From the IMG/VR virus record IMGVR_UViG_3300025018_000001: a DNA stretch of 64,000 bases; one strand, given 5' to 3'. Source of the stretch: a virus (taxonomy: Duplodnaviria; Caudoviricetes). Below, piece by piece: positions 16,266 through 28,267 of the stretch (position 1 is its first letter; every line of letters begins with the position of its first letter). Both the position numbers and the translations under genes were made by a program. Under the pieces are notes generated by a model. That model had not been told where the DNA came from. It did not search any database and was given only the letters and a program-made list of their open reading frames with translations.

Positions 16266-16306
16266 TCTGTTCTCCTTTACTTAATTATAATTAGACTGAT
16301 TGAGGT

Positions 16307-16492
16307 TTATTCCTCAGGATAGTACTTCTTATTCAGCCTAACTAGTTGCCTTTCGGCTTCTTCACGCATATCATATTCCTTTGTAACAGCGGTCTCTTCT
16401 TTATCATTTACGACCACTCTATATTTATAATTCTTAGGATTCAACGAAACTCTAAACCACGGTTGTTTTAAATCAGGTATTTTAACTTTCAT
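16307..16492 (-). CDS. Hypothetical protein
   Basis: First gene left of the divergence region. Confidence 0.5.
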   Translation of the reverse strand: MKVKIPDLKQPWFRVSLNPKNYKYRVVVNDKEETAVTKEYDMREEAERQLVRLNKKYYPEE

Positions 16493-16499
16493 ACGCCGC

Positions 16500-17340
16500 C
16501 CACTGTGCCAGGTTTATACATACGCTCTCCTCTCTTATTAATTATTTAACTTCTTTACTCCTTTTATATATCTCAGTTAGTTAATTTGTACGGCAAGTTT
16601 TGGGCTTTTCGACGCACACATATCTCCCCTCTCCACACGACCACTAGTAGCCCAACACGCGGCTAGAGGCGAAATAAGGTACCATCACGACCAGTACCAC
16701 TAATAGCATAGTAGTAGATACTCATAGTACAAATAAACAGATAGGGGAGGATTTAGGGGATGCTATGGTACTCTATTATTACTACTACTATTCTACTATA
16801 ATTATTGTACTACATGGCTGATTCAATAAAATCTATTTAGGAAGCGCTAATAGTACCTTGAACCTTAACGACGTCTGATTCAATAAAAAAAGATTGATCT
16901 AATATAATAGTAGTAATATACATAGTAGTATAGTTATAGTACTATTATCTATAAAGGAAAGAGGACATACATCCATAACTGATACTATTTTAGTATTAAG
17001 GTGCAATTATGGTACTTTAGGCTGTTACAAAGACTACTGTATTACTATGGTACTGGTACAAAGACTACTTTATACCACTAGTACTATATTATTACTACCT
17101 ATGGTGGTTGTCTGTACCTCAACGTGGCCCGGACGGAGGGTGGTGGTCGAACATGTAAAAAGAGCAAAAATTTATATTTAGGGGCACCCTTATAGTGGTA
17201 CATCGTTATTAGGGATATTCTTATTTTTATAGGGGCACTCTTTGTTCGGAGGCCTTTATAGTGGTACTCTTTTGGTGAGTAGATTTGAAGCAATCTTCTC
17301 AATTTTAACTAAAGCTTCTTAAAAATTTACATTTCCGGGG
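16500..17340. other. Non-coding divergence region, TAGTA/TACTA-rich low complexity
   Basis: No credible ORF; transcription diverges on either side; contains TAGTGGTAC boxes in both orientations (minus ~16692-16700; plus 17193, 17259). Confidence 0.6.
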
Positions 17341-17378
17341 GTTAACTACCCCCTCCCCCCTCTTAAAGGAGACATATC

Positions 17379-17666
17379 ATGTCAGAAATCATCTTAGTTC
17401 AAGTTGCCAAGTCAGTTTTCAAATCTTCTAACGGTTTCACCTTTGATTTCAGCTCTCCAGGTCATTTGGCGTACTTAAAGACCCCAAAAGGGTCTTATAT
17501 GATCAACAGAGACTGTTTGGATGCTGATTTACGTGGAACTTCCACCTGCCGACGATATATTGGCACCGTACCTGGTGATAAACACGAGTACGGTAACCGT
17601 TGGGACGTGTGTCTGTCCGTTATGAAACGCACAGCAGTGCTAACATGGTCCAAGAGTGTTAGATAA
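17379..17666 (+). CDS. Hypothetical early-type protein
   Basis: AAAGGAG RBS; first gene of the GC-richer block. Confidence 0.65.
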   Translation: MSEIILVQVAKSVFKSSNGFTFDFSSPGHLAYLKTPKGSYMINRDCLDADLRGTSTCRRYIGTVPGDKHEYGNRWDVCLSVMKRTAVLTWSKSVR

Positions 17667-17671
17667 TACTT

Positions 17672-17761
17672 AGCTGTACCAGCTTTTATAGTGGTACAGC
17701 TTTTTTGAAGGAGCAAGGCCCATTTCGGGCAACGCTCTAAAACTCCAATTAGGAGCTTGTT
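17672..17761 (+). promoter_or_regulatory. Repeated intergenic module copy 1 (type B leader)
   Basis: AGCTGTACCA/TGGTACAGCT hairpin + T6, box TAGTGGTAC-N9-G(17707), GAGC..GCCC-ATTTC-GGGC..GCTC, CTCC/GGAG hairpin over the SD. Confidence 0.8.
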
Positions 17762-17980
17762 ATGAAGATTGAAATCACCCAGGACGACCGTGGTTTTGAC
17801 GTTGTCACTATAGACGGCGTAGTAGCCTCAACTGACGTTGCGGCCATCATATTAGATGCTGTTGATTGCATCGAGACTTGCCAGTACAATGAGGCTAACG
17901 CCTCTTGGGGGCCAGAAGACGGTGGTAGCTGCCCATGTGGTGGTGTTACTTGCGATGGGACCTGTGAGCCACCGTTCTAA
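17762..17980 (+). CDS. Small Cys-rich acidic hypothetical protein
   Basis: Follows module RBS. Confidence 0.6.
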   Translation: MKIEITQDDRGFDVVTIDGVVASTDVAAIILDAVDCIETCQYNEANASWGPEDGGSCPCGGVTCDGTCEPPF

Positions 17981-17987
17981 TAAAAAT

Positions 17988-18084
17988 CAGGGCCAGCTTC
18001 CATAGTGGTCCTGTTTTTTTGAAGGAGCTAGCATATCGCTGGCTCTAAATCCCCATCGTGCCTAAAGGCACAAAGGAGTCTGTC
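17988..18084 (+). promoter_or_regulatory. Repeated intergenic module copy 2
   Basis: Hairpin+T7, TAGTGGTCC-N9-G(18021), GAGCTAGC-ATATC-GCTGGCTC, GTGCC/GGCAC, AAAGGAG. Confidence 0.85.
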
Positions 18085-18417
18085 ATGGCTAAAGTAAAAC
18101 ACGTTGTTAAACTCCGTGGCGTTGTTTCTACCTCTAACGGTATGGTTGTTGCCAAAACCCATCAGGCAAACGAGGTAGAGGAGTTCCACGGTGACACCCC
18201 TGAAGGGGTTACCCCTTTCGTAGCCAGCTACTTTAAGTTTGCTGGTTACAAAGATGAGAGAACTGGCGAGTACTGCGCCATGTTCTTGACTACACCCAAG
18301 GGCAGGTATGAACTTAAGTTCAATGCTGGCGCTGGTGTATGGCAATGTACTGCTAATGGCCGCAAGCTTCTTGTGACCATTAAGAAGGTGGTGGGTGAAC
18401 TCCGCTACTGGGCGTAA
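18085..18417 (+). CDS. Hypothetical protein
   Basis: Start re-set to MAKVKH after the module RBS. Confidence 0.65.
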   Translation: MAKVKHVVKLRGVVSTSNGMVVAKTHQANEVEEFHGDTPEGVTPFVASYFKFAGYKDERTGEYCAMFLTTPKGRYELKFNAGAGVWQCTANGRKLLVTIKKVVGELRYWA

Positions 18418-18422
18418 CCCTG

Positions 18423-18517
18423 AAACTGTACCAGCTTTCATAGTGGTACAGTTTTTTTGAGGGAGCTGGCATATCGCTGGCTCTATAATCCAACGCCTTC
18501 GGGCAAAGGAGTTTGTT
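18423..18517 (+). promoter_or_regulatory. Repeated intergenic module copy 3
   Basis: Hairpin+T7, TAGTGGTAC-N9-G(18459), GAGCTGGC-ATATC-GCTGGCTC, GCC-TTCG-GGC, AAAGGAG. Confidence 0.85.
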
Positions 18518-19012
18518 ATGATTACTGTTAAACTTACCGGCCACCTCTACGTTGGTAGTGCAATTGAGTCCTCTTCTGATTGTGGCACTTGTGACGGCGC
18601 ACGTTGCGAGGGATGTCACAAGCGTTGGGTATTCGAGGGCACCACCTACTACAGCTACGAGTCTGCCCTAGAAGCAGAGGCTAACAGCCTGTCTGCTTGG
18701 CAGTCACTGGTTCCTGGTGAGGAGCATCCCTCCAATCCTGAGTTCACCCTTAACGCTGATGGAGAGCTTGCAGCTCTTTGTTGGAGTTGGGAGAAGGGTG
18801 ACCATCTGGTGGTATGTAACCCAGATGCAGCAGCATACGACGCATTGTATGCTAAGGCGCTCAAGGCTACCGAGTTGTGGGTATCCTGCCCTTGTGTTGA
18901 CAAAGCAGACCATTGCTATGCCAACGACTGCAGCATCATGGGATGCAATGATTCCAGATGCAGATACGAGGTTGATTGTAAACAGCGCAAGGAGCGCAAG
19001 TGGTACATGTAG
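18518..19012 (+). CDS. Cys-rich hypothetical protein
   Basis: Multiple CxxC clusters; module RBS. Confidence 0.65.
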   Translation: MITVKLTGHLYVGSAIESSSDCGTCDGARCEGCHKRWVFEGTTYYSYESALEAEANSLSAWQSLVPGEEHPSNPEFTLNADGELAALCWSWEKGDHLVVCNPDAAAYDALYAKALKATELWVSCPCVDKADHCYANDCSIMGCNDSRCRYEVDCKQRKERKWYM

Positions 19013-19019
19013 TACCGAG

Positions 19020-19115
19020 ACAGGGCCAGCTTGTATAGTGGTCCTGTTTTTTTGAAGGAGTTGACATATCGTCAGCTCTAAAACCCAACGCTGCATAGCA
19101 GCAAAGGAGATTCAC
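19020..19115 (+). promoter_or_regulatory. Repeated intergenic module copy 4
   Basis: Hairpin+T, TAGTGGTCC-N9-G(19054), GAGTTGAC-ATATC-GTCAGCTC, GCTGC/GCAGC, AAAGGAG. Confidence 0.85.
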
Positions 19116-19634
19116 ATGAATACTTTAAACATCCACGCTGGCTGGCTCAAGAGACTCAATGCATTGTCTGGTATGTCTTATGTTACCATCGACGCTGCAG
19201 GTGCAAGAGACTATGCCAAGCGAGCCTCAGCTGACGGCTATAAGCTTGTGCTAGTTAATGACACCTTAGGTGTCTACGGCTACGAGCACCCTGAGGGCTT
19301 TAGCTGGTTGTTCTACAAGATTATCAACTCCGACCGCATGGTGGCTTGTCATGCTGGTGGCAGCAAAGACGGCTTGCGGGCTAACATTGCTGAGGAGCTG
19401 GGATCATTGTGGTATCTTAAGTGCAACAGCACTCCAGCACCACGTGACCCGTTCGTAACGACCTACCATCCTGTCGCTGGATGGAAAGCAGTCCTTATGA
19501 CTTGGGATGCTGATTGTAACACGTACACCCCTGAGCAGACGGGATACTTCGGTCACAAAGACGAAGCGGGTGCTATTAAGGAGGCCAAGGACTGGGCCAA
19601 GTGCGAGGAGATTGAGTACCGGGCTAGAGCGTAG
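19116..19634 (+). CDS. Hypothetical protein
   Basis: Module RBS. Confidence 0.65.
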   Translation: MNTLNIHAGWLKRLNALSGMSYVTIDAAGARDYAKRASADGYKLVLVNDTLGVYGYEHPEGFSWLFYKIINSDRMVACHAGGSKDGLRANIAEELGSLWYLKCNSTPAPRDPFVTTYHPVAGWKAVLMTWDADCNTYTPEQTGYFGHKDEAGAIKEAKDWAKCEEIEYRARA

Positions 19635-19640
19635 CCCACT

Positions 19641-19740
19641 GCTGTACCATTGCCTTCGGGTAGTGGTACAGCTTTTTTGAAGGAGTTAGCATATCGCTAG
19701 CTCTACAACCCAACGCTGCACAGCAGCAAAGGAGTACGTT
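19641..19740 (+). promoter_or_regulatory. Repeated intergenic module copy 5
   Basis: UUCG-capped hairpin+T6, TAGTGGTAC-N9-G(19679), GAGTTAGC-ATATC-GCTAGCTC, GCTGC/GCAGC, AAAGGAG. Confidence 0.85.
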
Positions 19741-19926
19741 ATGGCTATTAAAAGAGTTGTTACCCGTATCTGTCAATGTTGTGGTGAAAGAAAAGCTATC
19801 CCTGAGGGAGCTAACTATTGCACCAGTTGTTCTAGTCCATCCGCGTTTGCATCCGTGATGGATACTAGAAACAGTGGCGCATCTTTCGCAATTAAATCTA
19901 TAACAAAAGGAGGTCGTCATGATTAA
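19741..19926 (+). CDS. Small zinc-ribbon protein
   Basis: CQCC...CTSC. Confidence 0.55.
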   Translation: MAIKRVVTRICQCCGERKAIPEGANYCTSCSSPSAFASVMDTRNSGASFAIKSITKGGRHD

Positions 19927-20008
19927 GGCCTATTTACTTTTAGCTACTTTCTTTCTAGCCCCGTTCATCTGGTTTATATTTGACCTGTTGAGTATGGTGC
20001 CTAAGTGA
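19919..20008 (+). CDS. 29-aa hydrophobic peptide
   Basis: Not in the track; MIKAYLLLATFFLAPFIWFIFDLLSMVPK with GGAGG RBS. Confidence 0.5.
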   Translation: MIKAYLLLATFFLAPFIWFIFDLLSMVPK

Positions 20009-20019
20009 GTAACTTAAAC

Positions 20020-20111
20020 GTTGGACCGCTGCCCTTTGGTAGTGGTCCAGCTTTTTTGAATGAGCACCGCCTATCTTGGGCAACGCTCTCAACTCCATAT
20101 GGAGGTTTCAC
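20020..20111 (+). promoter_or_regulatory. Repeated intergenic module copy 6 (type B leader)
   Basis: Hairpin+T6, TAGTGGTCC-N9-G(20058), GAGC..GCCT-ATCTT-GGGC..GCTC, CTCC-ATAT-GGAG. Confidence 0.8.
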
Positions 20112-20375
20112 ATGCCTTATTCAATATTCGATGTTATGCAAGCAGCCCGCAAAGCACGCCCTGAAGTCAAATGGGAATATGCTAAGCTCAATGACGCCAT
20201 CTCAGAGATGATGCCCGTTGAGTACGATGGTCTTTGGTCACCTGGTAGGCTTTGTGCCCATTACAGTGTTGACACTGACTCAGTACTCAAGGTAGACAAC
20301 TACTGCGTGGATATCAACAACCGCTTCCCGTCTAAGGAAGAAGCTCAGGCTTACATCGACGCCCTTGTATTCTAA
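20112..20375 (+). CDS. Hypothetical protein
   Basis: Start re-set to MPYSIF after GGAGG. Confidence 0.6.
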   Translation: MPYSIFDVMQAARKARPEVKWEYAKLNDAISEMMPVEYDGLWSPGRLCAHYSVDTDSVLKVDNYCVDINNRFPSKEEAQAYIDALVF

Positions 20376-20379
20376 CCAC

Positions 20380-20480
20380 ATACTGTACCGCTGCCATTTG
20401 GTAGTGGTACAGTATTTTTGATGAGGCTGACATATCGTTGGCCTTCAAACCATTGCGCTTAATGCGCTAAGGAGATTGAT
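20380..20480 (+). promoter_or_regulatory. Repeated intergenic module copy 7
   Basis: Hairpin+T, TAGTGGTAC-N9-G(20420), AGGCTGAC-ATATC-GTTGGCCT, GCGC/GCGC, TAAGGAG. Confidence 0.85.
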
Positions 20481-20711
20481 ATGGAAATTTCTAAACTGAA
20501 GGTAATGCGTTCAGCTGCTGGTTATTACATTGGTAGAAGTTGTACTAATGATGACATGCCTGGCTTTGAAGAGCCTTACTCACGGGAGAGTGGTTACTAT
20601 CCCAACGAGGCAGCAGCTACGGCTGACCTGCATACCTTTGACGTCCGTGATTGTGCTGAGAATGAGTATGCATATGAAACTGGCGCCATTAAACGTCCTT
20701 ACAGGCCTTAG
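20481..20711 (+). CDS. Small phage protein (MRSAAGYYIG...PYSRES type)
   Basis: Motif familiar from uncharacterised phage/plasmid proteins. Confidence 0.6.
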   Translation: MEISKLKVMRSAAGYYIGRSCTNDDMPGFEEPYSRESGYYPNEAAATADLHTFDVRDCAENEYAYETGAIKRPYRP

Positions 20712-20721
20712 GAGGTGTACC

Positions 20722-20946
20722 ATGCAGAGTGACACTGTTACGTATACCAGAGCACATGTGGAGTTGTTAGTGAAACTTGCCTTCGTAAGGGGGCAAGAAT
20801 TCGCTACAGCAAATATGCTTAAAGATGCTACCGAACGCGTAGCTTTAGCCATAGGAGCTAAGTATGAGCACGTACAACCAGAAGCAGCTGAGGATAGTGC
20901 AGTTGTTGAAAGAAAAACAGGATGTACTGCAAGCGCCTGTGCCTGA
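20722..20946 (+). CDS. Hypothetical protein
   Basis: AGGAGG RBS, start MQSDT. Confidence 0.55.
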   Translation: MQSDTVTYTRAHVELLVKLAFVRGQEFATANMLKDATERVALAIGAKYEHVQPEAAEDSAVVERKTGCTASACA

Positions 20947-21119
20947 AGGTGTTGATGAATACACGGCTGCCTGTGATGAGGAAGCCACGTTGTATTACAT
21001 TGACAAAGAGATAATGGAACTTAGGCGTAGTACAAGCGCCTAAGTATTTATAACAGCAACAACCCTGGGGGTAGTACAATCTCCTGGGGTTGTTGTCTAA
21101 TGTAACCGGTAATACAATG

Positions 21120-21197
21120 AAGGTACCATTCTTGTGGTACAGGTTTTTTGAGATAATCTCATCTCACCAAAGCAATCATAAGCAAAGGAGAATTAAC
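21120..21197 (+). promoter_or_regulatory. Repeated intergenic module copy 8 (type C leader)
   Basis: GTACCA/TGGTAC, TTGTGGTAC-N9-G(21150), GAGAT/ATCTC hairpin, AAAGGAG. Confidence 0.7.
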
Positions 21198-21365
21198 ATG
21201 GCTAAGTCAGTTAAGAAACAATCACCGTCAAGAGAGCGCCTTATCAAAGTCCTGGACCGTAAGGCAGTAGATGCCCTGGATTTGAAGGAGGCCATAGAGA
21301 ACGGTATATACTCGAAGAGCGTAAGAGTTGTTGAGCCTAAGCTCTGGGAAGAGCGCTACTATTAA
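21198..21365 (+). CDS. Hypothetical protein
   Basis: Start re-set to MAKSVK. Confidence 0.55.
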   Translation: MAKSVKKQSPSRERLIKVLDRKAVDALDLKEAIENGIYSKSVRVVEPKLWEERYY

Positions 21366-21372
21366 TATTCAC

Positions 21373-21452
21373 CCTGTGCCAGCTTTCATAGTGGTACAGG
21401 TTTTTTGAGGCAATTCCGTCTCACCAACGCCAATTATGGCAAAGGAGTTATT
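21373..21452 (+). promoter_or_regulatory. Repeated intergenic module copy 9 (type C leader)
   Basis: CCTGTGCCA/TGGTACAGG+T6, TAGTGGTAC-N9-G(21407), GAGGC/GTCTC, AAAGGAG. Confidence 0.75.
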
Positions 21453-21695
21453 ATGAAGAATTTAACCTTTAAGCAGCTTATTATCCTCTATGTAACGTGT
21501 ACACTTCTCTTAGGCGCGGCGTGCGGTATAGCCGTTTTCAAACTCTATTTCCGCGAAGTCACTTTCATATCTGTGACCTGTAAGAATCCAGAGTTGAGTT
21601 ATACTGAACGTTTAGACGTTGAGGGAGATTTCAAGTGTAATTGGTCATCATTAGACTTGAATAACCATTACGTATTATCCATTGGAGATAAGTAA
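21453..21695 (+). CDS. Membrane-anchored small protein
   Basis: N-terminal TM. Confidence 0.55.
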   Translation: MKNLTFKQLIILYVTCTLLLGAACGIAVFKLYFREVTFISVTCKNPELSYTERLDVEGDFKCNWSSLDLNNHYVLSIGDK

Positions 21696-21696
21696 T

Positions 21697-21861
21697 ATGA
21701 CTGACCCTATGGATATATGTATATGGCCTGATTGTACTTGGTGTCATGAGGAAGACATCGAGGAGTACCAATGGAAGTCAGATGATTTCAGAGTGGCTAC
21801 TATTAGTGGTACCATGTCTGATGATAGAATTGAAGACCTGGTTACTCAGGGATTACTGTAA
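21697..21861 (+). CDS. 54-aa acidic protein
   Basis: Not in the track; MTDPMDICIWPDCTWCHEE...; GGAG RBS. Confidence 0.45.
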   Translation: MTDPMDICIWPDCTWCHEEDIEEYQWKSDDFRVATISGTMSDDRIEDLVTQGLL

Positions 21862-21893
21862 GTTCAACGCCAATATTGGCAAAGGAGATCGTC

Positions 21894-22097
21894 ATGATTA
21901 AATGGATTGATAAGTCTTTGGATAAGGTTGAGAGAGCAGCAGCTAATGCACGTGCAGCCCTTAGAGAAAAGGAAGACCTTAAGAAGCAGTTAGTTATTGC
22001 AACAGCTGCGTTAAAGCATATATACGAAAGGCCTGACTCTGAGTGCCCACCTAAAGAAGCAGCTAAAGATGCCCTTCAACAGATGGGGTTATTATGA
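21894..22097 (+). CDS. Coiled-coil small protein
   Basis: GCC/GGC hairpin + AAAGGAG leader. Confidence 0.55.
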   Translation: MIKWIDKSLDKVERAAANARAALREKEDLKKQLVIATAALKHIYERPDSECPPKEAAKDALQQMGLL

Positions 22098-22648
22098 AAT
22101 ATGCAGGTATTGGGTCACGCGAGACACCCGCTAACGTCTTGCAAGTAATGTCCGACATAGCTGTATTAATGGCTATTGACGGGCATATCTGTTGTACTGG
22201 GGCTGCTCTTGGTGCTGACCAAGCTTTTGCTAACGGCGCCAACAGAGTACACGGGGCTATTGAACTATCTATCCCTTGGAATACGTATGAGTTCGCTTGG
22301 TCTTGTACATTGCATAATGTCAAATCAACGGCATATGATGCTAATGTACACAAAGCAGCAGCTGACTCTGTACATAAGTTTCATCCGTATGCAGCTAAAC
22401 TAAAGCAAGGTGCATTCAAGCTCCACGCACGTAACTATCTTATTATAGATGGTTGTGCTTTGGTTATATGCTGGACTACTGATGGTAAAGCCTCAGGTGG
22501 CACAGGACAGGGAATTCGTATTGCAGAGAGCCTTGGTATACCTGTGTACAACTTGGGCAATGCGGAGGTACTACAGGCCTTCGTAGACCGTATAAATGCG
22601 CGTCGTCATGAAATCACGGCGTATACTAAACACTCAGCGCCTGAGTAG
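22094..22648 (+). CDS. SLOG/DprA-like nucleotide-binding protein
   Basis: YAGIGSRETP, TGAA.GADQAF, HARN, GGTGQ..RIA..GIPVYNL. Confidence 0.75.
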   Translation: MKYAGIGSRETPANVLQVMSDIAVLMAIDGHICCTGAALGADQAFANGANRVHGAIELSIPWNTYEFAWSCTLHNVKSTAYDANVHKAAADSVHKFHPYAAKLKQGAFKLHARNYLIIDGCALVICWTTDGKASGGTGQGIRIAESLGIPVYNLGNAEVLQAFVDRINARRHEITAYTKHSAPE

Positions 22649-22661
22649 GCAAGGAGGTTGT

Positions 22662-23072
22662 ATGGATTTGTTAAGCGCTATAATGTGGCTAACGTTGAAC
22701 ATTTATCACGAAGCACGAGGAGAAGACCAAATTGGTCAGATAGCTGTTGCTCATGTTACATTGAATAGAGTACATAACAGAGACCAATCAGTTAAAGAAG
22801 TAGTTCTAGCACCATATCAGTTTAGTTGGACTTTAAATGAAAGTTGGACCCCCAAGAATATGGAGGCTCTACTGGAATGTTTAGAAAGTGCAACGGTGGC
22901 TATTCAAGGACATGACTTCACTCAAGGTGCTACACATTATCATCGAGCTGATATTCATCCATACTGGGCAGATAAGATGATTTATCTAGGTCAATTTGGT
23001 GATCATAAGTTCTACCGCAAGAAAGTACATCTTATAGCTTCAAAGGTTAAGAAGCTTCGTAAAAAGCACTAA
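22662..23072 (+). CDS. Cell wall hydrolase, SleB/CwlJ family
   Basis: NIYHEARGE..GQIAVAHV.LNR, YQFSW, GATHYH, HKFY. Confidence 0.88.
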   Translation: MDLLSAIMWLTLNIYHEARGEDQIGQIAVAHVTLNRVHNRDQSVKEVVLAPYQFSWTLNESWTPKNMEALLECLESATVAIQGHDFTQGATHYHRADIHPYWADKMIYLGQFGDHKFYRKKVHLIASKVKKLRKKH

Positions 23073-23078
23073 CACCTG

Positions 23079-23175
23079 AGCTGTACCGCTAGTTTTTATA
23101 GTGGTACAGCTTTTTTGATAATGTTCACATATCGTGGACATACAAAACCAAAGGCTTATGCCAAAGGAGTGTGTT
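23079..23175 (+). promoter_or_regulatory. Repeated intergenic module copy 10
   Basis: Hairpin+T6, TAGTGGTAC-N9-G(23117), ATGTTCAC-ATATC-GTGGACAT, GGC/GCC, AAAGGAG. Confidence 0.85.
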
Positions 23176-23547
23176 ATGAACGCTTATTCTGTAGATGCAC
23201 GTGGTAACGTTATTGCTGCTACTAAGAACGTAAAAATTAAAGTACGTGAACTTATGATAGCACAAGAAGACCTTATCATTGCAAAGATTTTCGCAGGAAG
23301 GCATCTCCCAGACAGTAACCCTGTTGCTGTTACCAAACCTGTTAAGTTCCACAGGTCATCCAAAAAACGTCTCGAAAAGTTCTTCATTGAATATAAGAAA
23401 CGTTACAACAGTAGTCAGGCACCTTCACAATTCAACGTGAGGATTCTATGTACACAACTGAAGAGTAATCCTAAGTTTAGTTGGTGTCATGATCCGTCTG
23501 ATGCTATGTTGAAAACTCTCGTTGGTTTCTGTATTAATAACTTCTAA
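23176..23547 (+). CDS. Hypothetical protein, paralogue A
   Basis: C-terminus F.WC...SD..L..L..FC..NF shared with the next gene. Confidence 0.65.
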   Translation: MNAYSVDARGNVIAATKNVKIKVRELMIAQEDLIIAKIFAGRHLPDSNPVAVTKPVKFHRSSKKRLEKFFIEYKKRYNSSQAPSQFNVRILCTQLKSNPKFSWCHDPSDAMLKTLVGFCINNF

Positions 23548-23592
23548 TTTAAATTCACAGCCCGGTGTAACAGCCGGGCAATGGAGATCCTC

Positions 23593-23991
23593 ATGTTTGA
23601 AAATGAAATCGCAGATGCACAAGGTGTGGTAATGGCTAAGTTACAAGAACTACAAATGGCTTCAGATATACTAGCTATTTGGAAAACTAGACAAGCATTA
23701 GCATACAATGCGGCTCAATGCAATGCAGCAGATAAAACAGTACTTCCTGCTAATGCAAAGGCAACCAAAACAATCAGGTTCAAAAAGACTGGTTATACAG
23801 TTGCAACTGCTAAACGTAAGAAAGGTTTTCTTATATTTGTACATGCACGAATTTCTACACCACCATCATTTGAAGATGTTCAAAGATTGGTAAAAGATGC
23901 AGCAGACTCATATGCTACGTTTAGGTGGTGTAAAGGTTTATCAGATGTTTCTATACTTGGTCTCTATCAATACTGCAAAAGCAACTTTTAA
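23593..23991 (+). CDS. Hypothetical protein, paralogue B
   Basis: See previous; GCCCGG hairpin leader. Confidence 0.65.
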   Translation: MFENEIADAQGVVMAKLQELQMASDILAIWKTRQALAYNAAQCNAADKTVLPANAKATKTIRFKKTGYTVATAKRKKGFLIFVHARISTPPSFEDVQRLVKDAADSYATFRWCKGLSDVSILGLYQYCKSNF

Positions 23992-24034
23992 TCAATTCAC
24001 AGCCCGGTGAAATATCCGGGCACAGGAGAACATC

Positions 24035-24217
24035 ATGGCTGATATCATCGTTACTGCTGACACAATTACTACTTTACGTCGTCGCCTTGTAGATAAACTT
24101 TGCAAAGACAATTTGTTTGCACTTTCTGTTATTGGTTTTGCTATGCGCAAAGGTAAAATCAAATACATCGACCTTATGACTGAAGACGCAGCTAAACTCT
24201 TGACCCAATCCAAATAA
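24035..24217 (+). CDS. Hypothetical protein
   Basis: GCCCGG hairpin + CAGGAG leader. Confidence 0.55.
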   Translation: MADIIVTADTITTLRRRLVDKLCKDNLFALSVIGFAMRKGKIKYIDLMTEDAAKLLTQSK

Positions 24218-24254
24218 ACCTCAGCGCCCTCTTCGGAGGGCATAGGGGAAGTAC

Positions 24255-24566
24255 ATGAACAACTTATTAAAATTGTACAGAGAGCTGAAACCTGAGAATA
24301 ATGAAGAAGCCAAACTCGCAGTTGTACTTGCCGCTGCTGAGGTTTCATTTCCCCTTGGTTGTAAAGTGAAAGTAATGGGAACAGGTTATATTGCTGAGGT
24401 TGTGAAGTACAACAAAAACCTCGGTGGATTTTATCCTGGTGTACGTTATCCTGTTCTTGTAAAGATTATACGGTCAAAGGATAAGAAGTTCAGGAAAGCA
24501 GTTGGAATGATATTCGAGTATACACCTGACCAGCTCAAAAAGATTAAGGTGAAGGCTAATGTCTAG
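24255..24566 (+). CDS. Hypothetical protein
   Basis: UUCG hairpin leader. Confidence 0.55.
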   Translation: MNNLLKLYRELKPENNEEAKLAVVLAAAEVSFPLGCKVKVMGTGYIAEVVKYNKNLGGFYPGVRYPVLVKIIRSKDKKFRKAVGMIFEYTPDQLKKIKVKANV

Positions 24567-24753
24567 AATCATTCTAATAACCGGTCATTATCCTATTATT
24601 GTTAATGGAGAAGACACAGGTAAAACGGAATTCGTTGTATCTCACGGTATTAATGAAGATACTGGAGATGCTATTATACTACCTAATGATCCACCTCATA
24701 CATTCGAAGGTTCTTACTATAGTCCTGAAATGAATGAGTGGATTCTACCATAA
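24559..24753 (+). CDS. Hypothetical protein
   Basis: Overlaps upstream stop. Confidence 0.5.
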   Translation: MSRIILITGHYPIIVNGEDTGKTEFVVSHGINEDTGDAIILPNDPPHTFEGSYYSPEMNEWILP

Positions 24754-24764
24754 GGAGCTTTATC

Positions 24765-24992
24765 ATGTCATCAGAAGAATTAACATGCTCAGTTTGTGAA
24801 CGAGCTGGTTGTGAATGTATTTGTGATTTGGTTGTTAATAAAGAAGATTATGATGCCGTTGTACATCTGGCAAAGAAACTTCTTAAAGGCGCCAACATCT
24901 GTATGGAAGAACAATCTTTAATCCAGCCTTTCTTCTCTATTGTAAAGGACAATGCTGCTATCATCGGTAAGTTGAATCTATTCGATGAATAA
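24765..24992 (+). CDS. Small Cys-containing protein
   Basis: TAAGGAG RBS. Confidence 0.5.
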   Translation: MSSEELTCSVCERAGCECICDLVVNKEDYDAVVHLAKKLLKGANICMEEQSLIQPFFSIVKDNAAIIGKLNLFDE

Positions 24993-25150
24993 CAAGACTC
25001 CCTGCCAGGCACTAGCCTGGTGGGGTTTCTTCATCTTTTTTAAAAAACCCTGGAGCTTCGTGAAGAACTCTTGTGGTAGTTCGAACGTGGGGACCCTGCA
25101 GCTTCGGGCCGAGTACCGTGCTAGTACCATCGCTGTTTGGGGATGGGGAT

Positions 25151-25169
25151 TAGTGGTACGGGTTTTTTG
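25151..25169 (+). promoter_or_regulatory. TAGTGGTAC-N9-G box
   Basis: Same box, spacing and T-run as the modules. Confidence 0.7.
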
Positions 25170-25210
25170 AGTATAGTCTATGTTTATCCACCAATTTAAA
25201 GGAGTTTGCT

Positions 25211-25450
25211 ATGAAACTAGTTCAGCTTGTTGTATTCATTTCTGTGGTTCTTTACGGCCAGTTCGTTTTCGCGGCTATATCTTACGAGAAAATCAGCTGT
25301 CTTGTGGGCGATTCAGTTATGTTCTTGACCGTTCCTATGGACAGTAACTGGGACAATTTGCAAATGGAGGATGCGGGCAAAGCAGTATGCGAGTCAATGG
25401 CGTTGGTAAGAATAATTCCGGGGCAGGTACTTGATGCAGAGGAGGAGTAA
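25211..25450 (+). CDS. Small secreted protein
   Basis: Signal peptide; AAAGGAG. Confidence 0.55.
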   Translation: MKLVQLVVFISVVLYGQFVFAAISYEKISCLVGDSVMFLTVPMDSNWDNLQMEDAGKAVCESMALVRIIPGQVLDAEEE

Positions 25451-26299
25451 ATGGAAGCATGGACGGCGCAGTACCGTTATACTGGACCCTATAGACTGGA
25501 TGTTACGGTCAAAGGTCAGGACATGACGGGTAAGTTATTCGCACCTACTTGGGATATGGTCATGAATTATAAGGCATCCAAGGGAACGGAAGCGGATAAA
25601 AAGATTTACATTGAGCAGTACCATAAGGTAATTCTTAATGTAATCAAAAATCATCGCAAGGAATGGGATGAATTGCTGGCACGCAAGTACGTGGTGATTG
25701 TGTGCTTTTGTAAGGCAGGTGAGTTTTGTCATAGACACCTGCTAATGCATTACCTTACACAGTATGGTGCTGTATGCCATGGGGAGATTACTGACTTCTC
25801 ACGCTGGAGCAAAGAACGTAAGGTGATTAGTGAATTCAAAGGCCAATACGGTTGGGCATCCAACTTCGCGCCGTGTAAGTTCACGCATGAGAACATTGAA
25901 TATGATTCTACCGAGACATTTTATCAGGCAATGAAGTATGGGCCTAATGATATGTTGAAGATTAAGGTGGATAATAAATTCATTGAAGTCAATGCACGTG
26001 AGTATATTTCCAAACTACCGGCGGGTAAAGCCAAACGCATGGGCAAGAAAGCAAAACTGCCTTGGAACTGGGACACCCTGCGAGTGGATGTTATGGAACT
26101 TGCGTTGAATTACAAGTATGACCAGCCTTACTACAAAAGTCTGTTGCTTAGAACGGACGATGCCTTGATGATTGAAGGCAATTGGTGGCATGACAATTTT
26201 TGGGGAGACTGCTCCTGCCCTAAGTGCGAGCATATCAAAGGTGCAAATACGCTTGGTCAGTTGACTATGCGTAAGCGTGATGCACTACGGAAAGTTTAA
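25451..26299 (+). CDS. DUF488-like domain fused to NADAR (YbiA-like) domain
   Basis: VIVCFC...FCHRHLL N-terminal; F.G.Y..SNF, ETFYQAMK, LLLRT...IEGNWWHDNFWG C-terminal. Confidence 0.8.
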   Translation: MEAWTAQYRYTGPYRLDVTVKGQDMTGKLFAPTWDMVMNYKASKGTEADKKIYIEQYHKVILNVIKNHRKEWDELLARKYVVIVCFCKAGEFCHRHLLMHYLTQYGAVCHGEITDFSRWSKERKVISEFKGQYGWASNFAPCKFTHENIEYDSTETFYQAMKYGPNDMLKIKVDNKFIEVNAREYISKLPAGKAKRMGKKAKLPWNWDTLRVDVMELALNYKYDQPYYKSLLLRTDDALMIEGNWWHDNFWGDCSCPKCEHIKGANTLGQLTMRKRDALRKV

Positions 26300-26301
26300 C
26301 A

Positions 26302-26320
26302 TAGTGGTACTGCTCTTTCG
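26302..26320 (+). promoter_or_regulatory. TAGTGGTAC-N9-G box within a hairpin
   Basis: GTGGTACT/AGTATCAC stem. Confidence 0.65.
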
Positions 26321-26360
26321 GGAGTAGTATCACACTCAATTCTAACGAAGGAGAATTTGT

Positions 26361-27917
26361 ATGAATCATTACAATGAAGTTGCTGGGGTTCTTGAAACAG
26401 GTGCTGAATTAGTATCTCCTCATCTGCGTTGGTTAATTCGTAACGCAATTCTGGAGCACTGCGGACCTGCGGCAGTAAATCTGATTGCTTACAATGAGTC
26501 AGTCCCTGCTGAACACTACGGCATAGCTCATGCACCAAGCAAATCTCTGGTGTTGAATCTTGAGAAGCATTTCTACAATGCCGTCATCAAGGTTCAGGAA
26601 GATGAGAATATGTATGCATCACTGCGTACACTAATTCTCCATGAGCTTTTGGACACTGCCAAGCATGAAGCACATCATCTGCTGGTAGCTTTCGAAGAAG
26701 GTAACTTTGAAGATAGCGACCTTGACGAAGAAGGTGCTAAAGTTGCGGGCAAACTTTCATGGCAGGTTGCACGTGATTGGGATGTTAACATAGTCCTATT
26801 CGGCACATTCCTTGATACGCTTATTGATGATTTCATTGCTGATGTCAAAGAAGCTACCTTGGAAACACCAACCATGTGGAAAGACCTGCAGGTATACATG
26901 CATGAGAATTGTCTGGGGTATTACAATCCAGATAAAGATATGGAACTCTCAATCATGAATACTTTCGAGGCCCTTGCCAAAGATGACAATCCATGGATGA
27001 CGGAACCTGCTAAGTTCCTTGATACTACTATCTGCGAAACTGAACGCACTCAGGTGCCAACAGTTCCTGCGGTGGACGGTATTGATATACCTGTGGATAA
27101 TTACGAGTCGCAGATGCCTATTCATCCTCAAGAAGTTACTCCTGCGGGTATGAGTATGTTTGAAGCTTTGGCTCTGGTGCAAAACAGTGGAGCACAGCCT
27201 ATAATCAGTCAAAGTACTTTCGAAAGATTTATGGCGCAGTCATTAAAGGAGGATGGGTACGTACCACCCTCACTACCTGCTATGGGTGATTCTTATCCAG
27301 TGTACGATGGCGGTGATGACTATGACTGGAATGAAGAGCCTGAATTGGCGCCTGTTGCTCCGATAACTCCGGTCATGCAACCTATGACACAAACAGCTCC
27401 TGTAGCTCCTGTAGCTCAAGGTGCTGGTGGCCATGGCATGGCTAAGGTTATCGAAACGGTATTCCGTACTATATTCTGGCATGTAGTCAATAAAGGTGAA
27501 TTCACACATGAGGGTAGTTATAATAACCCTGCGGTTGTGATGCAACCTGTTAGTATTGCACACATTCCGGGTGCTTTGGATATATTCACCAACATGGATA
27601 CCTTGGACAAGAATGGTAAGTATGCCAAGAATCAGCCGTGTTCCATGGGTATAACTGGTATGTTAACTAAGGAAATGCTTCCTAAGTATACCATGTTCCT
27701 GAACATTGCTGGAACCGTTCACCGACGCTCATTGGTTGCACAAAATCCGAATGCAGTTGACGGACAAGGTGCACTCAAAACTTGGGCGAAGGAAGCTCGT
27801 CAAGGTACCAAGATTATGTACGTACTTGGTGATGAGAAAAATCCCGGAGTTCGTGCAAGTATTAAGCTCACTGCTGGAAGTCCTCTCGGTCAGGAGGAAT
27901 ACAAGCTGTGGACCTGA
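26361..27917 (+). CDS. Large hypothetical protein with HExxH motif and acidic/Pro linker
   Basis: KHEAHHLL; AAGGAG RBS. Confidence 0.7.
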   Translation: MNHYNEVAGVLETGAELVSPHLRWLIRNAILEHCGPAAVNLIAYNESVPAEHYGIAHAPSKSLVLNLEKHFYNAVIKVQEDENMYASLRTLILHELLDTAKHEAHHLLVAFEEGNFEDSDLDEEGAKVAGKLSWQVARDWDVNIVLFGTFLDTLIDDFIADVKEATLETPTMWKDLQVYMHENCLGYYNPDKDMELSIMNTFEALAKDDNPWMTEPAKFLDTTICETERTQVPTVPAVDGIDIPVDNYESQMPIHPQEVTPAGMSMFEALALVQNSGAQPIISQSTFERFMAQSLKEDGYVPPSLPAMGDSYPVYDGGDDYDWNEEPELAPVAPITPVMQPMTQTAPVAPVAQGAGGHGMAKVIETVFRTIFWHVVNKGEFTHEGSYNNPAVVMQPVSIAHIPGALDIFTNMDTLDKNGKYAKNQPCSMGITGMLTKEMLPKYTMFLNIAGTVHRRSLVAQNPNAVDGQGALKTWAKEARQGTKIMYVLGDEKNPGVRASIKLTAGSPLGQEEYKLWT

Positions 27918-28149
27918 TACGAACTGGCATTGTATTAAACGCTAGGGAAATCCGAAATGAATTTGGGTACACACATAAGTATCCGAATTCATTTGGGAAA
28001 GGCACAAAGGTGTGGATTCACTATGACAATAGTGGAAACATACTTAAGATTGAACCTATGGAGGTTTGTGGGGAGTAGTGGTACTGCTCTGTGATGGTTT
28101 GGGTTCTGCTGTTCCCTGCTGTTTCGTTCTCCTTTCCCTGCCCCTTCTT

Positions 28150-28182
28150 GGGGGTGGGGATGGGGATGGGGATTTTGGGGGA
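28150..28182 (+). repeat. G-tract array (potential G-quadruplex)
   Basis: GGGGG-T-GGGG-AT-GGGG-AT-GGGG-ATTTT-GGGGG immediately before a TAGTGGTAC-N9-G box (28183-28201). Confidence 0.65.
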
Positions 28183-28267
28183 TAGTGGTACTGGGTTGAT
28201 GATGGGCTTGTGGGTGTTCCCTTGCCTTGTTGTACTTTCGTTTTATCATTTTTTAAGGAGATTTATC

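Follow-up and report, generated by a model that had tools for sequence, protein, structure and literature searches.

A 64,000-nucleotide stretch of viral DNA (Duplodnaviria; Caudoviricetes; IMG/VR record IMGVR_UViG_3300025018_000001), hereafter the window, carries on its plus strand, between positions 17,672 and 23,175, an array of small genes headed by intergenic modules that combine a terminator-like hairpin, a nine-base box, a leader hairpin and a ribosome-binding site. Ten such modules had been proposed from the letters of the sequence (the original prediction), and all ten were found on the plus strand at the expected places (Table 1). Judged by sequence comparison with related phages, the leader hairpin is a real RNA structure, and the leader is an undescribed, multi-class leader RNA motif. 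The modules are read here as composite early-region expression cassettes, in which a box for a phage polymerase and a protective leader would be combined with exchangeable cargo; the probability of this reading is estimated at roughly 0.6.

Covariation and classes of the leader hairpin

Sequences related to the array were gathered by pattern scans and stem from uncultured phages represented in IMG/VR (four contigs: L001; L015/L203/L230, here G003; L017, here G001; and L020) and in metagenomes (eleven contigs: L030, L031, L035, L038, L040, L044, L049, L050, L053, L054, and L062). Two metagenome runs labelled as RNA-Seq were judged to be probably DNA and were used as contigs only. The proteins of these relatives are 30-85% identical to those of the window. 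Among GenBank phages the array had no match by megablast, and the tail protein of the window shares at most 30-39% identity with its counterparts in Pseudomonas, Xanthomonas, and Ralstonia phages.

Six leaders of the window (starting at 18021, 18459, 19054, 19679, 20420, and 23117) have the predicted form of four unpaired nucleotides followed by an 8-bp stem closed by a C-AUAUC-G loop, with exactly the individual stem sequences that had been put forward for them; the stems extend to 9 bp when G-U pairs are counted. Modules 1 and 6 possess the interrupted stem with AUUUC and AUCUU loops, and modules 8 and 9 the 5-bp stems, that had also been described, the latter beginning at position +1. For the whole leaders of the ten modules, folding z-scores range from -1.5 to -4.4. 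When the window was searched with a covariance model of the long hairpin, exactly six matches were found, all of them on the plus strand and directly behind a box.

That structure rather than sequence is under selection had been suggested from the six copies of the window, and this view gained support from an alignment of 22 distinct long hairpins from this phage and related uncultured phages. They all have the same layout of 4 nt, 8 bp, a 5-nt loop, and 8 bp, and no two of the 22 stems are identical. Double-sided changes occur in seven of the eight pairs, 43 cells are compensatory, and none of 500 shuffles reached the observed covariation score. Pairing was found in 98% of the cells and fell to 25-47% when the partner was shifted by one to three columns, but such percentages are inflated because the long class was selected on pairing, the covariation counts being less affected. 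Orthologous genes, which allow the cleanest comparison, keep the leader class and differ in the stem. Homologues of the gene at 23176 carry the leader stems AUGUUCAC, AUAUCUAC, GAGCUUGC, or GAGCUUCC, and those of the gene at 18085 the stems GAGCUAGC, GAGUUGGC, GAGCUGAC, or GAGCCAGC.

The 22 hairpins contain 28 G-U cells compared to three non-pairs. The fold is thus that of the sense strand, because in a cruciform or on the opposite strand each of these G-U cells would turn into an A-C mismatch. The same mismatches bear on the possibility that the hairpins act as DNA, namely as cruciform or single-strand recombination sites that would be used by a site-specific recombinase in the manner of integron attC sites. 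Integron cassettes are promoter-less and have conserved core sites and a DNA fold that does not depend on the strand. The modules would match such a system in forming an array of small units that have inverted repeats of conserved structure and vary in content between relatives, but the fold fits one strand only, each cassette has its own box and thus its own candidate promoter, and no attC core sites are present (with recombinases considered only among the listed genes). Moreover, homology between relatives ends at several places, which fits homologous exchange at short patches and not a single crossover point. A role as DNA sites is therefore regarded as highly improbable.

The original prediction had not recognised the motif as a named family. 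In agreement with this, an Rfam scan of the window at gathering thresholds yielded only an EGFOA RNA, which lies elsewhere, and a scan of positions 17600-23300 with E-values of up to 5 returned four chance-level hits, none of them on a module hairpin. A hairpin pattern search directed outside the clade gave 55 hits, of which three were in this clade; two further hits outside the clade pair at seven of the eight positions, by chance. There was no sign of the motif elsewhere than in this clade. An unrelated locus on three small viral contigs (L206:2140, L208:4468, and L225:3966) combines GAAG with an 8-bp stem around an AUAUC loop, return arm included; it occurs in a single copy per contig, has neither a box nor a Shine-Dalgarno (SD) sequence, and is probably a coincidence. 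The idea that the GGAGC/GCUCU arms of the long hairpin form an SD/anti-SD switch was dropped, as many members (AUGUUCAC, AGGCUGAC, AUAUCUAC, GAAUUAAC, and others) lack these words.

One shared architecture had been proposed for all modules. This holds for the core and the module layout, whereas the leaders belong to three recurring classes that also differ in how the SD sequence is arranged. In a set of 66 distinct box-driven leaders from the window and its relatives, a long class with a continuous stem of 8-9 bp was counted 23 times (0.9 in shuffles), a two-tier class 13 times (1.9 in shuffles), and a short class, with a stem of 5-6 bp starting at +1 and the loop AAUNNN, also 13 times (1.2 in shuffles). 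The two-tier hairpin consists of an outer stem of 3-5 bp, a 3x3 A/C-rich internal loop, an inner stem of 3-4 bp, and a pentaloop starting with AU. This class was counted by script, the shorter inner stems having been misplaced in the MAFFT alignment; it comprises modules 1 and 6 here and prevails in the array of roughly 20 modules in G003. If transcripts start at the inferred G, 49 of the 66 leaders have 0-4 unpaired nucleotides before the hairpin.

The leaders in the modules are 49-67 nt long, including the SD sequence. The linkers behind the leader hairpin are A/C-rich as claimed (39 A, 28 C, 7 T, and 1 G). A second hairpin abutting the SD sequence, predicted for every module, was present in eight of the ten leaders (before AAAGGAG or TAAGGAG), seven of them being found by scan and the weak 2-bp stem of module 8 in folds only; in modules 1 and 6 the SD sequence is itself the 3' arm of a CUCC...GGAG hairpin. 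The same division recurs in the relatives. Behind long and short leaders come, in this order, CCAWM, a small hairpin, and AAAGGAG (30 of 43 leaders, with 16 different stems), and behind two-tier leaders a CUCC...GGAG stem that locks the SD sequence. A fourth leader type of 58 nt was observed behind the same box in relatives only (L230:2576-2640, L230:3521-3585, and L044:2763-2827 on the minus strand). It contains the words AAGGCCC and GGGAGYUACACUG and has 21 predicted pairs, six of which covary across the three copies.

The terminator-box core and the exchange of cassettes between phages

A hairpin followed by a T-run, with the box TAGTGGTMC in its 3' arm, is present in all ten modules as predicted (folds of -10.5 to -26.6 kcal/mol; the box of module 8, TTGTGGTAC, has one mismatch), and each box is followed, at a distance of exactly 10 nt, by the expected G. 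The array extends beyond the range first proposed, with another box ahead of the first gene (at 17259) and at least an eleventh module, at 25151. In the region 16300-26500, 21 terminator-like sites were detected compared to 7.5 +/- 2.3 in shuffles. Exact copies of the box occur 20 times on the plus strand of the 64 kb and twice on the minus strand. In the relative G003 (L230), all 25 exact copies, located at 42.8-63.4 kb of the contig with about 14 cassettes within 6 kb, are on one strand (control 0 and 1). Sigma70-like sites were not enriched (18 compared to 20.4 expected), and none of them recurred in the modules.

At 49 of the 56 box sites in the clade, the box pairs with an upstream hairpin arm. 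Boxes with TCC in place of TAC have a correspondingly altered 5' arm (GGACC or GGGCC), and the 5' arm is out of register between copies, partly through varying loop length. In 44 aligned box sites, the 30 nt upstream nowhere exceed 0.75 bit, whereas conservation is seen at -8 (G), +2 (A), and +4 (G), positions that the search left free. A T5-6GA stretch lacking the box was never found in a promoter-like place. The box also precedes, with the same N9-G spacing, the genes at 28183, 39312, 41173, 51332, and 63336 (all on the plus strand), where it has G-rich flanks, no complementary arm upstream, and no leader hairpin. This hairpin-free context likely represents a second promoter class. Its consensus is GGGG-N2-TAGTGGTAC-TGGYGTTTY-GGG, and it stands ahead of larger genes with G/T-rich leaders. 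A full-text literature search for the 9-mer retrieved primers only. Because the box is strand-specific, not sigma70-like, and also found before hairpin-free genes, it is best read, by analogy and from its position, as the promoter core for a phage polymerase, around which the terminators are built. As this core sits in the 3' arm of the terminator, the U-tract of the terminator would be the -9 to -1 stretch of the next promoter.

To our knowledge, little is known about the first transcripts of phages with tail-delivered or self-encoded multisubunit-type polymerases, Thermus phage P23-45 being the only mapped case, with starts and stops determined through RNA 5'/3'-end sequencing and polymerase ChIP. 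The tape measure protein of P23-45 carries a fused RNA polymerase, and the phage encodes another polymerase besides (Chaban et al., 2024; PMC10770324). It possesses an array of about a dozen single small pre-early genes beside a divergence point, each with a conserved AT-rich, non-sigma70 promoter of the virion polymerase. The terminators, which have in common a 26-nt motif containing CTAG in its 3' half, end 6-49 nt ahead of the following mapped start (for example 340/346 and 3399/3405). The GC-rich promoter of the second polymerase reads TCTAGRGGC-N8-10 (TCTAGGGGC; PMC10770324). The array described here resembles that of P23-45 in being a row of small single genes by a divergence point, with a conserved promoter directly behind a sequence-conserved terminator and a U-tract overlapping the promoter, features that are deduced here from sequence alone. 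The P23-45 GC-rich promoter also resembles TAGTGGTAC-N9-G in layout, and the TAGGGGCAC words of the window resemble TCTAGGGGC. In contrast, the AT-rich promoter consensus TTATTCCTTTA of P23-45 ends at the start site, the last base of the motif is the A of the ATG, so that the leaderless pre-early mRNAs have no 5' hairpin, linker, or SD domain, and terminator motif and promoter are separate words, whereas here a single 9-mer is both stem arm and box.

This comparison also suggests a different division of labour, in which the box would be a sequence-specific part of the terminator and not the promoter of the array, the AT-rich T-run/GAAG would be the promoter, and the hairpin-free boxes would form a second class for another polymerase. 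P23-45 divides its conserved terminator motif, AT-rich promoter, and separate GC-rich promoter in just this manner (PMC10770324), and the last of these resembles the hairpin-free G-rich boxes. Furthermore, G001, a relative of 228 kb with the same modules, has two putative polymerase genes: a frame of 7488 amino acids with a polymerase motif and a weak match to PF00623, and a polymerase-like frame of 1088 amino acids that scored above the Pfam cut-off and had no match among solved structures in a sequence search. However, one 9-mer with one N9-G spacing occurs in both contexts, T5-6GA needs the box to appear in promoter-like places, and mixed sites exist that combine G-rich upstream flanks with T6-GAAG (25151 and L015:6090). 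The two roles of the box are not mutually exclusive, and its exclusive assignment to the terminator is considered unlikely.

The claim that the units are self-contained and swappable was borne out by related phages, which carry different genes and leaders behind the same terminator-box core. In metagenome contigs of 90-99% relatives from wastewater and other samples, position 17748 was joined to 19642 in one contig, with about 240 other letters replacing four genes; in another, 18366 was joined to 19020, so that one cassette is missing; and in a third (run X18), 18460 was joined to 21864, so that the promoter abuts the SD domain of an internal gene. New leaders behind an unchanged core include GAAUCAAC (loop AUCUC), GGCAGGC (AUAUC), and GAGAC (AAUAUC). 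Joints and loose ends in the contigs of relatives lie at module borders, and homology between relatives ends at +2, the terminator start, the loop, or the SD hairpin. The homologues of the genes at 20481 and 20722, which are adjacent in the window, are separated in L040 by a full unit consisting of terminator, box, long leader, and a homologue of the gene at 19741. Two genes (21453-21695 and 21697-21861, plus strand) are flanked by near-identical SD domains and are absent from L054 and L001, where the promoter-leader abuts the homologue of the gene at 21894; the segment 21453-21896 may thus have been inserted or duplicated at the SD hairpin. As far as these sequences indicate, it is the terminator-box core that stays constant as a linker between phages, leader and gene moving together. 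The arrays of G001 and G004 lie at the very end of the contig, which suggests repeats that break the assemblies.

The PeSL (promoter-early stem-loop) cassettes of T4-type phages, which had been named as the established analogue, are a fair functional analogue, although the pre-early units of P23-45 are closer. PeSLs are composite intergenic elements of approximately 100 bp in which a terminator stem-loop overlaps a promoter, with SD sequence and start codon on the 3' side; the promoters are strong and sigma70-type (-35, -10, and an AT-rich upstream element) and are used by the host polymerase, and PeSL recombination yields encapsidated mini-circles (Arbiol et al., 2010, PMC2839356; Comeau et al., 2014, PMC4122927). 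Like PeSLs, the modules are composite terminator-promoter-SD elements that flank ORFans in a plastic region and border insertions, deletions, and replacements between related phages. They differ from PeSLs in their phage lineage, in the box, which is not sigma70-like, and in the covarying 5' leader hairpin, which PeSLs lack.

Proposed function and alternative readings

Each small ORFan gene or mini-operon is preceded by a hairpin with a U-run that has the form of an intrinsic terminator. According to the cassette reading, the box together with the T-run would be the promoter for a phage polymerase starting at the G. By sharing bases between U-tract and promoter, each unit would be insulated from its neighbours. 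The 5'-proximal hairpin would most likely protect the mRNA from 5'-end-dependent decay and may also keep the ribosome site free of upstream pairing. The three leader classes could act as translation presets, the SD sequence either lying free beside a hairpin or being locked in the CUCC/GGAG stem. The conserved loop suggests an additional reader, and the short conserved core could provide a homology patch for cassette exchange, as in the PeSLs.

The protective role is proposed by analogy. The hairpin in the 5' untranslated region of ompA and the stem-loop that opens the phi10 (gene 10) transcripts of phage T7 are 5'-terminal stabilisers, a kind of stem-loop that is situated within about 4 nt of the 5' end and lengthens the half-life of the mRNA. 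As in these mRNAs, the hairpin would begin 0-4 nt from the predicted 5' end, and a spacer that is free of structure and resembles an enhancer leads from it to a strong SD sequence; as in T7 phi10, the hairpin stands right behind a phage-polymerase promoter, which is putative here. The ompA and T7 gene 10 hairpins differ in having no conserved loop and in not forming a multi-copy family of fixed classes. With these likenesses, 5'-terminal stabilisation is a plausible and the most economical function for the hairpin.

Several points count against the cassette reading. Box, T-run, and GAAG were part of the patterns with which the sequences were collected, and members of the long class were chosen for being able to pair. 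Start site, termination, and promoter assignment draw on analogy and position. The metagenome joints stem from 90-95% relatives and could include assembly errors, although the main ones are probably genuine because independent assemblies agree. Finally, positions 1, 2, and 4 of the loop (A, U, and U) and the closing C-G pair have an entropy of 0.3-0.4 bit compared to about 1.1 bit in the stem, and this argues for a reader, because a pure 5'-end protector needs no conserved loop.

The loop had been described as an invariant C-ATATC-G. This is true of all six long leaders in the window; the relatives vary, with AUAUC (11 copies), AUUUC, AUAUA, ACUUC, AUGUA, and others, giving the consensus AUNUN. 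Within a genome the loop tends to uniformity while the stems differ (AUAUC in 6/6 here and in 3/3 in L040, mostly AUAUA in L044/L054), but mixed loop sequences were found in the lineages L030/L050 and L038. The hairpin could hence be chiefly a recognition site, the C-AUNUN-G loop being bound on the nascent RNA by a phage protein or polymerase that would switch the unit, with the terminator either ignored or obeyed (boxB/N-like or put-like) or the translation of early mRNA shut off (as at a RegA-like or coat-protein-like operator). The better conservation of loop and closing pair than of the stem points to such a site, as does the uniformity within genomes, since gene conversion would homogenise the stems too. 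In addition, a loop starting with AU is common to all three leader classes, and the strong terminator-like structure at the end of every cassette would give a read-through switch a use. Against this stand the lineages with mixed loops and the deviating loops of the short and more distant variants. No loop-binding candidate was recognised among the cassette genes in Pfam and PHROG searches, and no complementary RNA partner was found in the window, where the complement of the loop, CGATATG, is present at only three other sites, all outside the non-coding RNA region at 13.9-14.3 kb. If each unit has its own promoter, antitermination would also be unneeded for expression.

The boxB hairpin in the nut sites of phages lambda and P22 has a purine-rich, GNRA-like pentaloop and needs a single-stranded boxA and the arginine-rich protein N, which acts on the host polymerase. 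The leaders resemble boxB as short stems with a conserved pentaloop that would lie on the nascent RNA behind a promoter and upstream of terminators. They differ from it in their loops, which are AUAUC, AUUUC, and similar and not GNRA-like, and in having GCUCU inside the stem, and no N-like gene was recognised among the window genes in Pfam and PHROG searches. A likeness of GCUCUAAA, the word following the stem, to boxA was rejected as too weak, and this word is partly base-paired. A chiefly recognitional role is accordingly retained as a tentative alternative that is clearly less probable than the cassette reading.

A more speculative possibility, to which little probability is given, is that the overlap of terminator and promoter forms a terminate-and-restart station. 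A polymerase tethered at the tail channel would reel the DNA in, release a short RNA in the U-run, and re-initiate a few bases on without leaving the DNA, and the leader with its AU-start loop would be read on the nascent RNA by the polymerase or a phage factor. If this were true, the leaders would constitute a polymerase-specific leader RNA of a new class, whose three presets would determine how each early gene is expressed.

Under the favoured cassette reading, the modules would represent a second and denser layout of early transcripts besides that of P23-45, in which one 9-mer is both terminator arm and promoter box. The family of covarying 5' leader hairpins is new in that it is absent from P23-45 and Rfam. 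PeSL-like exchange at regulatory linkers would extend beyond T4-like phages and host-polymerase promoters. For about 66 units the analysis predicts exactly where transcription would start and stop, and it provides an RNA hairpin with natural compensatory variants, and a promoter word that is testable with recombinant polymerase. For synthetic biology, the modules may offer compact insulated expression units of about 95 bp.

The modules and their surroundings

Table 1. Positions in the window of the ten array modules and three related elements, all on the plus strand. Start sites are inferred from the box-to-G spacing; SD, Shine-Dalgarno.
Feature	Span	Terminator hairpin	Box	Inferred +1 G	Leader	Ribosome site	Start codon	Leader fold z-score
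Module 1	17672-17764	17672-17701; T-run to 17706	17689-17697	17707	two-tier hairpin 17710-17738 (GGAGC/aag/GCCC, loop AUUUC)	SD-sequestering hairpin CUCC..GGAG 17743-17755	17762	-3.09
Module 2	17988-18087	17988-18013	TAGTGGTCC 18003-18011	18021	long hairpin 18024-18046 (loop AUAUC), A/C-rich linker; covariance model 42.2 bits	SD domain 18053-18076 (GUGCC/GGCAC abutting AAAGGAG)	18085	-3.55
Module 3	18422-18520	18422-18455	18441-18449	18459	long hairpin 18462-18484 (AUAUC)	SD domain 18489-18510	18518	
Module 4	19017-19118	19017-19050	TAGTGGTCC 19036-19044	19054	long hairpin 19057-19079 (AUAUC)	SD domain 19085-19107	19116	-4.36
Module 5	19641-19743	19641-19672 (UUCG loop)	19661-19669	19679	long hairpin 19682-19704 (AUAUC)	SD domain 19708-19735	19741	-4.19
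Module 6	20020-20114	20020-20051	TAGTGGTCC 20040-20048	20058	two-tier hairpin 20062-20088 (GAGC/acc/GCCU, loop AUCUU)	SD-sequestering hairpin 20093-20104	20112	
Module 7	20380-20483	20380-20415	20402-20410	20420	long hairpin 20424-20444 (AUAUC)	SD-adjacent hairpin GCGC/GCGC before UAAGGAG	20481	
Module 8	21123-21200	stem 21123-21140	variant TTGTGGTAC 21132-21140	21150	short +1-anchored hairpin 21150-21165 (GAGAU, loop AAUCUC)	weak SD domain	21198	-1.46 (weakest of ten)
Module 9	21373-21455	21373-21400	21389-21397	21407	short +1-anchored hairpin 21407-21422 (GAGGC, loop AAUUCC)	SD domain 21424-21445 (GCCA/UGGC)	21453	
Module 10	23078-23178	23078-23112	23099-23107	23117	long hairpin 23121-23141 (AUGUUCAC/GUGGACAU, AUAUC)	SD-adjacent hairpin GGC/GCC	23176	
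Eleventh module	25128-25213	G-rich tract; T6	25151-25159	25169	6-bp +1-anchored hairpin	SD	25211	
Head of array	17236-17381	short T-run	17259-17267		long leader to first gene (17379-17666)		17379	
Promoter-less SD domain	21865-21896					CAAC-GCCA-auau-UGGC-AAAGGAG	21894 (internal gene)	

The promoter-less SD domain before the internal gene is near-identical to the SD domain of module 9. The first gene keeps its position at the head of the array in the relatives. Two TAGGGGCAC words before this gene (17175-17250, plus strand) look like box variants, and a similar word, ATAGGGGG, lies ahead of the first box in L001 and L030.

The first 16 kb of the window contain structural genes on the minus strand, among them those of a tail assembly protein and PhoH, and from 17.3 kb on the genes are on the plus strand and include those of RtcB, a CCA-adding enzyme, and a DNA ligase. 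The EGFOA RNA (RF02955; 14044-14153, minus strand; 44.2 bits compared to a gathering score of 37.7) is situated in a gap of the structural arm that is free of open reading frames. The cassette genes had no Pfam match, and their sole PHROG match, of the gene at 20481-20711, was to an uncharacterised PHROG. The only array genes with a recognisable family are a DprA/SLOG-like gene and a gene for a SleB-type cell-wall hydrolase (22094-23072, plus strand), which form a conserved backbone of the array with 54-67% identity in relatives. Downstream of the tenth module, three small genes (24221-24993, plus strand), which have no module at their borders, are replaced by a single A in contigs of two wastewater runs. 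GGGGAT/GGGGA repeats are located just upstream of some boxes (25128-25150 and 28140-28182 in the window, and L015:6060-6089) and constitute G-tracts that are capable of forming quadruplexes.

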